A stretch of DNA of 34,398 nt from an uncultured Schwartzia sp. (GTDB taxonomy: Bacteria > Bacillota > Negativicutes > Selenomonadales > Selenomonadaceae), in contig CAJPUA010000001.1 in NCBI GenBank assembly GCA_905373705.1, positions 1-34,398 on the forward strand, written 5' to 3'. Position numbers and translations under genes: made by a program. Of this stretch, positions 2,255 through 3,848 are shown in pieces. The notes under the pieces are model-generated. The model searched no databases and was not told the DNA's origin. It was given only the letters and a program-made list of their open reading frames with translations. The stretch's first letter is position 1; every line of letters starts with the position of its first letter.

Positions 2255-3550
2255 TTAGGCATGGGAGGAATTGGAAACGTATCGGTATCCGTTTCCGTGC
2301 TGCAACCGATAGCAGTACCGCCACGACACGCCATCGTTTTCTCCGACCCGAAAACTCCCCGAAGTGCGTACTACGACGCGTCCTACATGGATGCCAGCAT
2401 GTCCGCCCTTCGGGACGTCCGCACGGACAAAGTCGCCGGTACGAAATCCATGAACGGTCCGTGCCGCCTTGGGGCCGGTCCGCGGGAAGCCGTACTTGTC
2501 CATCCGGCACATTTGCCGACACCCGCGTCCCATCGCCTTGATGGAGAGAGCTTCCACATCGGGGTCCAGCCTAACAGCACCTCCCGTTTCCCCGACACAG
2601 GCGGCATCAATCCAGTGTTTCTTGGGGTAGCCCTGCGTCGTCCGGTTGAACTTCGTCCGGCCGCCGGTCCCCAACTCGACCGGAAGTCCTGTCCCCTTCA
2701 GTCGTTCCAGCAATGCCCACCGTGTCGCATTGACCGCGGCAATATCCCTCAATGGAGCTTTCGCCTGCGAGAGCACTCTGCGCAGTATCTCCGGCTTCCG
2801 GCGCAGAAACTCCTCGATCGGGCGGTTGCCCTTCCGTTGATTGCAGGTGTGGCACGCCAACGTGAGGTTCGATACACGGTCGGAACCACCCTTCGACTTA
2901 GGGACAATATGCTCCACTTCCAGCGGGACGTCCTCTGTGCCACAGTAGACACACCTGTGGCCCCATTTCTCCAGCAGGTATTCTCGGACTTCATACCCGT
3001 ACAGCGTTCCCTGCTGGTACTCCGCCCCTGATACTTCAGGGTCCTGCATCGTCTGGGTGTCGAACTTCACCAGCTCCATGGAGAGGCCGCCGACGTGAGC
3101 CCATCGGCAGAGCCGACGTACCCACGTAACCACGTTGTTCACCCGGCTTTCGAGGCTTGGTGGCAGCCAGCCCTCCTTCCGCCCCCGATTCAAGAACCGT
3201 GCAGGGCGATAGCGTGTCTTTCGTGATCGCCGCGCACAGCGTACCACACGACGTTTGTCCAGCTTGGCTTTCACCTCCAGTCCTCGATGCTGTAGTTCCG
3301 AAGCCCAAACTACCTCGTCCATACCACGGCGCCTCATCACAAGTGCCATTCCGGTCGTCCTACTGCCGGGGTCAATCTTGACCTTGACCTCGGTTGGTTC
3401 CTCGGCGGGTGCATACTTCAGGATGATCGTGAACGGCACACGGCGGAAGACTGCCGCCTTCCCCTTTCTCAGAAGCTCTCTTGCCCGTGCCGGATGGCAT
3501 GGTGAGAGCGGTTTCCTGTTCGTATCCAGCACAAAGACTCGCATTACCAT
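2255..3550 (-). CDS. iscB: IscB-type RNA-guided endonuclease (PLMP domain, split RuvC, HNH insert, C-terminal beta-rich domain)
   Basis: 431 aa. Motifs in order, residue numbers by my own count: PLMP-like [21 protein letters not shown]; RuvC-I [13 protein letters not shown] (D60); Arg-rich bridge helix [24 protein letters not shown]; RuvC-II [9 protein letters not shown] (E159); HNH CVYCG...[33 protein letters not shown] (H214, N237); RuvC-III [11 protein letters not shown] (H312, D315). Confidence 0.9.
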   Translation of the reverse strand: [431 protein letters not shown]

Positions 3551-3848
3551 GGGATTACTCCCCTTCCTGCCCCAAGAGGGCGTGATGTTCTCCTCGCCAA
3601 TGTATGCAGCCGGCTCCTCCCCGTATCGGAGAGCGGCCCTGGCGTTCGGCGCTTTGCCTTTCGCTTTCTTCGCCAGGGCCTTGCAGGGTCCGGGACTGGA
3701 GATGCATCCCGGAGGGCGTCTTTACGACCTGCTGCATACGTAGCCCGATATTGCTGGGCTAAGGCTGGTCAGTCCGGCTCAGGGATTCTTCCCCAAGCTC
3801 ACCGCCTTCAACGGTAGGCAACTGACTTTTGACGCCATCACTTCCGTT
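3551..3848 (-). ncRNA. Candidate omega-RNA (IscB guide/scaffold RNA); 5' boundary uncertain
   Basis: GC-rich region directly 5' of iscB on the same strand, without a credible ORF. Nested helices: 3635-3644/3671-3680 (10 bp), 3690-3695/3707-3712 (6 bp) and 3617-3623/3627-3633 (7 bp). The last contains one pair that is G-U only if the minus strand is the RNA. A long-range 9-bp pairing (3602-3610/3731-3739) closes the domain. Confidence 0.5.

Follow-up and report, generated by a model that had tools for sequence, protein, structure and literature searches.

What kind of locus is formed when an intact gene for an RNA-guided nuclease is preceded by a structured RNA and nothing else of a CRISPR-Cas system or a transposase accompanies it? 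The question is raised by a minus-strand gene encoding IscB, the transposon-borne ancestor of Cas9, within a 34,398-nt stretch of DNA from an uncultured Schwartzia sp. (the window, by which the whole analyzed stretch is meant). The sequence-only reading of this DNA had described a stand-alone IscB-type nuclease with an omega-RNA directly upstream of it. Comparison with related loci places both components inside a single element: at a probability of about 0.88, window positions 2228-3826 (1599 bp) are a non-autonomous insertion sequence of the IS200/IS605 family (ISC type), which encodes an intact IscB and, upstream on the same strand, a HEARO-type omega-RNA. The limits of the element are set by homology to relatives that lie in unrelated contexts.

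The iscB coding sequence occupies 2255..3550 on the minus strand (431 aa), exactly the open reading frame (ORF) singled out beforehand, with every quoted motif at its assigned residue. Profile, structure and alignment evidence define the following order: a PLMP domain (PLSP at residues 14-17), RuvC-I (D60), an Arg-rich bridge helix (residues ∼90-122), RuvC-II (E159), an HNH domain carrying a CxxC...CxxC signature (C200/C203/C233/C236; H214, N228, N237), RuvC-III (H312, D315) and a beta-rich WED/TI region at the C-terminus (residues ∼335-425). The NCBIfam equivalog for guided IscB proteins (NF040563, guided_IscB) matches residues 5-320 with 466.1 bits, far above its cutoff of 175, and Pfam assigns RRXRR (PF14239, 232 bits, residues 5-181) together with HNH and HNH_5 (residues 200-251). 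The closest sequences in the PDB are TbaIscB (E = 7e-47), HfmIscB (5e-31) and OgeuIscB (2e-26). In the residue alignment, D60/E159/H214/H312/D315 correspond to D61/E193/H247/H340/D343 of OgeuIscB, the RuvC and HNH catalytic residues of that enzyme, whose PLMP motif at residues 14-17 (Kato et al., PMC9640706) aligns with the PLSP of the window protein. Among 60 homologs with 58-89% identity, the five catalytic positions are conserved in 59-60, whereas H214, N228, N237 and the four zinc-ribbon cysteines are present in every sequence (60/60); P14, L15 and P17 are kept in 56-59, and position 16 is variable. The presence of an HNH insert with its catalytic His between RuvC-II and RuvC-III identifies the protein as IscB rather than IsrB.

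Structurally, the AlphaFold2 model built on the homolog alignment (mean predicted local distance difference test score 83, predicted template-modeling score 0.76) contains a helix at residues 90-109 and the beta-rich region at 335-425. Each of the ten best Foldseek matches in the PDB is an IscB or IsrB complex with omega-RNA and target DNA (E = 9e-25 to 3e-17), and Cas9 structures come next; whole-chain matches to the IscB complexes reach template-modeling scores of 0.53-0.59. The ratio of nonsynonymous to synonymous substitution rates (dN/dS) is 0.10-0.18 against nine relatives, which indicates that iscB is under purifying selection, and 0.34 against the near-identical locus L111. The layout of RuvC and HNH without a REC lobe and the intact catalytic residues, both proposed before any search was run, are thus borne out by the profile, alignment and structural comparisons. 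The ORF is an intact member of the IscB family with its catalytic residues in place, and its nuclease activity is predicted from sequence and model. A look-up of the exact protein sequence returned no record, and IscB homologs number in the thousands.

Upstream of the gene, the Rfam covariance search (cmscan) detects HEARO (RF02033), the family that corresponds to the IscB omega-RNA (Meers et al., bioRxiv 10.1101/2023.03.14.532601; Goltsman et al., PMC9755519), at 104.2 bits (E = 1.2e-20), above the gathering score of 83. The match is untruncated, begins at HEARO position 1 and defines a scaffold core (positions 1-211 of the model) at 3582..3826 on the minus strand, 31 nt 5' of the iscB ATG; HEARO is the sole Rfam family found in the window at or above its gathering score. 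Three of the four helices proposed from the letters alone are HEARO consensus helices (3635-3644/3671-3680, 10 bp; 3690-3695/3707-3712, 6 bp; 3602-3610/3731-3739, 9 bp). The fourth, a 7-bp hairpin at 3617-3633 (3617-3623/3627-3633), is a lineage-specific insertion relative to the HEARO model that is conserved and covarying in close relatives. All four are exact on the minus-strand RNA, but the earlier description missed the 5' stem within 3826-3768, where 3826-3819 pairs with 3775-3768, and two small hairpins at the 3' end. The latter lie in an extension past the Rfam model (3551..3581, minus strand), drawn from the sequence and a minimum-free-energy (MFE) fold, which brings the predicted scaffold to 3826-3551; RF02033 does not include downstream elements (Meers et al., bioRxiv 10.1101/2023.03.14.532601). 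The first of these hairpins has the form GCCC-loop-GGGC (3581-3569), and the second, GGGA-GUAA-UCCC (3562-3551), overlaps the iscB ribosome-binding region and adjoins the ATG. Both are found in relatives as compensatory variants, mostly with GNRA loops.

A full-length HEARO match lies directly 5' of iscB in 16 of 18 related loci. Covariation was assessed over the 18 loci in a MAFFT alignment unfitted to structure, onto which the Rfam-derived structure was projected; the same structure with pairing partners slid by 1-3 columns served as the control. In the projected structure 74.5% of cells are paired, compared with 31-43% in the slid controls, and 49 pairs are changed on both sides, compared with 19-31; in 500 column shuffles the observed values were never reached. 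Judged from these alignments, compensatory substitutions across the homologous loci have preserved the HEARO helices. By MFE z-score the two strands are indistinguishable (-2.87 versus -2.77), and the minus strand is therefore assigned from the covariance-model hit, several G-U pairs, the covariation and the orientation of the gene. Among the G-U pairs is the one U-G pair of the 7-bp helix, which would read C-A on the plus strand, a point of the sequence-only reading that holds on the sequence itself. A coding interpretation of the RNA region was also considered and rejected: the same-strand ORF of 60 aa that it contains is broken by a stop in the homologous locus L104 and by a frame shift in L110, and the region is therefore non-coding, as the claim that it held no credible ORF had anticipated.

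The limits of the element emerge from BLASTN comparison with relatives in unrelated contexts, in which similarity spans window positions 3826/3827 down to 2224-2235. On the RNA side, the end is the GTCA at 3826, identical with HEARO position 1, beyond which the flanks are unrelated between loci. The other end shows the same order in all copies: a hairpin around the iscB stop codon, then TTTCCTTGGAGG, then 6-7 nt, then ATGA. Loci L106 and L107 encode an identical IscB (P0005) in different contexts, and their sequences part ways right after this ATGA. Because these two and the other relatives diverge exactly outside the ends, the element comprises 2228-3826, and the ATGA at 2227-2224 is its adjacent target motif. 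The junctions were set by comparison with L104, L106, L107, L109 and L110, and the same junctions (GTCA at 3826 and before ATGA at 2227) recur in the window, in these five loci and in L116-L118 and L124. The ends carry no terminal inverted repeats and no target-site duplication, and the flanks of the copies are unrelated. The element also stands out as an island of ∼60% GC between flanks of 50% and 33-42%.

In transposon orientation, the plus strand of the window is the top strand, with the left end (LE) at 2228 and the right end (RE) terminating at 3826. It reads TCAT, LE, RE (ending in TGAC) and flank, the canonical IS200/IS605 arrangement. The ATGA at 2224..2227 on the minus strand (TCAT on the plus strand, 5' of LE) is the predicted transposon target site and target-adjacent motif (TAM) of IscB, and is invariant in our alignment A2. 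Within the close clade, defined by at least 73% amino-acid identity, 11 independent insertion contexts were compared: ten have ATGA as the junction motif and one has ATGG (TCAT and CCAT on the other strand). AwaIscB of Allochromatium may have an ATGA-type TAM, a point that is not used as evidence here.

The left-end region (2228..2290) contains a subterminal imperfect hairpin with an inner stem (2246-2253/2258-2265), which encloses the iscB stop codon and is terminator-like in our scan, and an outer stem (2236-2240/2271-2275). Folded as single-stranded DNA, the left-end top strand reaches -13.2 kcal/mol (z = -3.3), a stability matched by none of 200 shuffles, and the hairpin is kept in alignment A2 with compensatory changes. 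At the right end, which coincides in part with the first omega-RNA stem-loops, the top-strand fold has a z-score of only -1.8.

Published work on IscB provides the frame in which the upstream flank can be read. RE forms the boundary of the omega-RNA, and the guide derives from transcription of DNA outside the element (Meers et al., bioRxiv 10.1101/2023.03.14.532601); guides of 16-17 nt occupy the 5' end (Kato et al., PMC9640706), and the literature on IscB requires that omega-RNA transcription begin outside the element. The predicted guide at this locus is 5'-AGUGAUGGCGUCAAAA-3' (3827..3842, minus strand; ∼16 nt, possibly longer at its 5' end). It is flanking plasmid DNA, lies directly 5' of HEARO position 1, where similarity to other copies ends, and occurs once in the window. 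A candidate promoter, TTGAAA-18-TTTAAT (3855..3884, minus strand), lies outside the element in the AT-rich intergenic region. Its hexamers are present as the sequence-only reading had described, and its location suits the proposed transcription, but the promoter call is unsupported: the -10 hexamer lacks the conserved A at position 2, and the sequence stays an unverified candidate.

By analogy with published GstIscB and OgeuIscB work, from which each of the following steps is taken, transcription would initiate upstream of 3842, in AT-rich plasmid DNA, and run into the element. The 5' guide of an omega-RNA made in this way would consist of ∼16 nt copied from the flank (AGUGAUGGCGUCAAAA). The IscB-omegaRNA complex would then recognize the donor joint that lacks the element (...GUGAUGGCGUCAAAA followed by ATGA...), as IscB is known to target donor joints (Meers et al., bioRxiv 10.1101/2023.03.14.532601). 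In full, the predicted donor joint would be GGAAGTGATGGCGTCAAAA joined directly to ATGATTCG, and the target would be GTGATGGCGTCAAAA and then ATGA. The TI domain would read the TAM ATGA 3' of the protospacer, HNH and RuvC would cut both strands of the donor joint, and recombination with an intact copy would restore the element. On a multicopy conjugative plasmid this cycle would act as a drive and hold the insertion at fixation. For transposition, a Y1 TnpA would have to be supplied in trans.

Several observations weigh against this reading of the locus as a mobile element with a functional guide. No Y1 (HUH) TnpA was found by family search among the ORFs of the window or in the gene tables of the relatives, which is why the element is filed as non-autonomous. 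No element-free version of the present insertion site was recovered by PLSDB megablast, protein look-ups or a search of viral_contigs, so that the mobility of this copy is inferred from its relatives; the predicted donor joint is likewise absent from viral_contigs. The sigma-70 scan did not report the candidate promoter at 3884-3855, and the yield of the scan was at chance level. Finally, the TAM ATGR is predicted from the conservation of the junction alone. For GstIscB, the TAM is the target site 5' of LE, TTCAT, which reads ATGAA along the iscB strand (Meers et al., bioRxiv 10.1101/2023.03.14.532601).

The surroundings of the element bear on what else it might be. The predicted proteins of the window identify it as a segment of a P-type conjugative plasmid or integrative and conjugative element: a NikA-like protein, relaxase, SNF2-type helicase, coupling protein, TraB, topoisomerase III, TrbB/C/D/E/J/L, VirB8-like, CagX/TrbG, TrbI and ParA. 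The element occupies the leader of a plasmid operon that includes a ParA-like gene, and the gene upstream of the element is divergent. Megablast of 1400-4700 against PLSDB gave no match, which places this plasmid backbone outside the PLSDB collection, and the TrbE of the window is only ∼42% identical to that of known plasmids. Exact look-up of the 147-aa protein encoded downstream recovered the same plasmid segment from five other samples at 98-100% identity, and all five contigs carry the element, which is itself 99.8-100% identical.

This constant occurrence, the leader position and the missing tnpA could be taken to mean that the plasmid has domesticated an immobile copy and uses IscB-omegaRNA for competition or addiction, cutting related plasmids or copies without the insertion; a gene-drive effect of TnpB on plasmids has been reported in a review. 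We consider this improbable. The architecture is that of mobile relatives in its ends, TAM and flank-derived guide, and the lack of tnpA is normal for iscB elements: only ∼1.5% of iscB genes have tnpA nearby (Meers et al., bioRxiv 10.1101/2023.03.14.532601). Moreover, the lineage is mobile, since its close members are found at a wide range of unrelated sites, one of them elsewhere in a related plasmid. For the same reason of frequency, the significance that the sequence-only reading implied for an iscB without tnpA or CRISPR was overstated, since this is the usual case.

Very unlikely is a silent relic, in which ORF and RNA look intact but are unexpressed or inactive, for instance for want of a promoter into the guide, and the insertion is a passenger. 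The sigma-70 scan found no significant promoter, and the divergent upstream neighbor contrasts with the relatives, whose upstream genes are co-oriented with the element in 7 of 10 contexts. Yet the frame is intact with all catalytic and zinc-ligand residues present, dN/dS is low (0.10-0.18), the omega-RNA helices are kept by compensatory changes, and the plasmid operon's own promoter is expected in the upstream intergenic region, which is AT-rich and divergent. A CRISPR effector, either a miniature Cas9 or an IscB linked to a nearby array, is hardly credible: the protein shares the RuvC/HNH/bridge-helix core of Cas9 and matches the Cas9d and Cas9 models weakly over the HNH region, but at 48 and 29 bits these fall far short of their cutoffs (375 and 100) while the IscB equivalog far exceeds its own, the protein has 431 aa and no REC lobe, and the 34-kb window contains neither CRISPR-like repeat arrays by repeat search nor cas1 or cas2 among its ORFs by family searches, in agreement with the earlier claim that CRISPR, cas1/2 and tnpA are all missing from it.

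The insertion sequence reading also brings into view a pattern at the junctions of the close clade. In the window, the ATG of the ATGA at 2224-2227 (minus strand) doubles as the start codon of the downstream ORF 1784..2227 (minus strand), and a Shine-Dalgarno-like GGAGG at 2234-2238 (minus strand) lies 6 nt 5' of it, within the element. In 8 of the 11 contexts of the clade (window 2224-2238 and the junctions of L023, L104, L106, L109, L110, L117 and L124), a co-oriented downstream ORF of 64-525 aa begins with the ATG of the junction motif ATG(A/G), and an independent gene caller puts a gene start exactly there in 7 of 11. Against a background of all ATGR sites in the same loci, which is crude and, because internal Met codons are counted, generous, this gives P = 0.005-0.02. 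The left ends of the clade carry GGAGG 6-7 nt 5' of the junction ATG, and the co-orientation of upstream genes in 7 of 10 contexts agrees with the orientation bias reported for iscB elements (Meers et al., bioRxiv 10.1101/2023.03.14.532601). Together, these features suggest that the elements insert at start codons and bring a Shine-Dalgarno sequence with them, though the sample is small and the GGAGG also belongs to the left-end hairpin. As a tentative proposal, which we hold to be possible rather than probable, the niche of the clade would be the ATGR start codons of co-oriented genes. Elements would land between a host ribosome-binding site and its ATG, mostly in operons or leaders, and borrow host transcription for the guide-bearing omega-RNA, while GGAGG would keep the downstream gene translated and the insertion near-neutral for polarity. 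In the present plasmid leader, IscB could then serve as a plasmid-level drive.

Individual relatives show where members of the clade have settled. A relative with ∼80% amino-acid identity (L110, 2723-4351) lies between the VirB8 stop and the CagX/VirB9 start of a related plasmid backbone encoding a type IV secretion system. The homologous site of the window (24598-24620) is uninterrupted, with a conserved CagX N-terminus and TTGA in place of ATGA. As the L110 site differs from the present one, elements of this clade have struck this plasmid family at least twice, at different sites. The closest relative (L023, 1502-4526; 89% amino-acid identity) is followed directly by a 500-aa ORF, then by a PAPS_reduct-like gene and Csf3 (type IV CRISPR-associated). 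This neighborhood looks like a type IV CRISPR-Cas-like operon whose first gene starts at the junction ATG. In a further pair, L106 (3652-5323) and L121/L122 (2133-3898) share the same insertion site. Identity between them is 91-92% over the flanks and the initial ∼180 nt of the element but only 78% over its remainder (3' omega-RNA and iscB). This mosaic points to replacement of the interior by recombination between related elements, or to independent insertions at one site.

Among the known systems closest to the element is the GstIscB/ISGst element of Geobacillus stearothermophilus (Meers et al., bioRxiv 10.1101/2023.03.14.532601). Both are non-autonomous and IS605-like with no tnpA in cis, both have a HEARO-type omega-RNA 5' of iscB that is bounded by RE and takes its guide from outside DNA, and in both the TAM, predicted in the case of the window, corresponds to the target site 5' of LE (TTCAT in GstIscB, a TCAT core in the window). 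Unlike GstIscB, the window element belongs to a different lineage, resides on a P-type conjugative plasmid and is known here from sequence alone. Its clade conserves only a 4-nt junction core (ATGR on the iscB strand) and has the left-end GGAGG 6-7 nt before the junction ATG. The OgeuIscB complex (PDB 7UTN, 7XHT, 8CSZ) is the best structural match (Foldseek E = 8.7e-25) and shares the order PLMP, RuvC-I, bridge helix, RuvC-II, HNH, RuvC-III and WED/TI, a one-to-one set of catalytic residues and a large omega-RNA with a 5' guide. The two proteins are ∼22% identical in the best Foldseek alignment and differ in length (496 aa versus 431 aa), in the TAM (NWRRNA versus the predicted ATGR) and at the third HNH position, which is His in OgeuIscB and N237 in the window.

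TbaIscB and HfmIscB (PDB 9K30, 9K2Z), the best sequence matches among solved structures, align across the PLMP-RuvC-BH-HNH-RuvC core (BH, bridge helix) but both have large N-terminal extensions (1068 and 540 aa) that the window protein lacks. On the RNA side, the window sequence matches HEARO positions 1-211 above the gathering score and immediately 5' of an HNH/RuvC ORF on the same strand; relative to Rfam HEARO it has the extra 7-bp hairpin (3617-3633), shared only by close relatives, and the two 3' hairpins that reach up to the start codon. Cas9 of types II-C and II-D has in common with the window IscB a split RuvC with inserted HNH, an Arg-rich bridge helix and a C-terminal beta-barrel domain that reads the TAM or, in Cas9, the protospacer-adjacent motif. 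Unlike Cas9, the window IscB has no REC lobe, CRISPR array, tracrRNA/crRNA pair or cas1/cas2, and its single guide is fixed by the insertion site.

Beyond the element, the plasmid sequence has features of its own. Window and L111, two variants of this plasmid, share 99.5-99.8% identity over the element and the operon that follows it downstream, and their differences form a dense patch at 4167-4375 (the upstream region and the 5' part of the NikA-like ORF) and a sparser one at 5500-5970 in the relaxase gene. Homing-linked gene conversion at the element boundary, for which this divergence was inspected, was rejected, as the differences cluster away from the ends; the patch at 4167-4375 is a local hypervariable or recombined segment unrelated to them. 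AT-rich repeats of ∼24 nt with a core like TAGATAGTATCT occur once upstream of the element (4016-4039) and six times near the ParA gene (32245-33854), and the region 3900-4120 (including 4040-4110) contains several AGAAATAT/ATATTTCT inverted repeats. Together, these repeats probably serve the plasmid as operator, centromere or oriT-type sites. At 34344-34398 lie 2.5 copies of GAATAAAAGGATGCTTTGGGGC, a perfect tandem repeat with a 22-nt unit that runs into the end of the window and may be iteron-like. Downstream of the element, the ORFs 1451-1747 and 1784-2227 (both minus strand) have paralogous C-terminal halves (..EFV..N...L...G..R..Y..L...G..LGS..SF...WR.) and no family match, and the next ORFs (243 aa and 207 aa) have no Pfam or NCBIfam match. 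An ORF at 6603-6968 (plus strand, 121 aa) matches Pfam TnpV and overlaps the start of the gene for the 1947-aa SNF2-type helicase.

The locus is an ordinary member of the IscB/omega-RNA family. This kind of nuclease is already thoroughly characterized, with a curated protein model, an Rfam family, several cryo-electron microscopy structures and a published biological role, and the locus adds little to what is known of it. Its value is that of a cleanly delimited natural example, with defined ends and scaffold and a predicted TAM and guide. With 431 aa and a predicted short ATGR TAM, the protein could be tried as a small genome-editing nuclease. If confirmed on larger data, start-codon junctions and a Shine-Dalgarno sequence brought along by the element could account for the persistence of such elements in plasmid and phage operons without polar damage.

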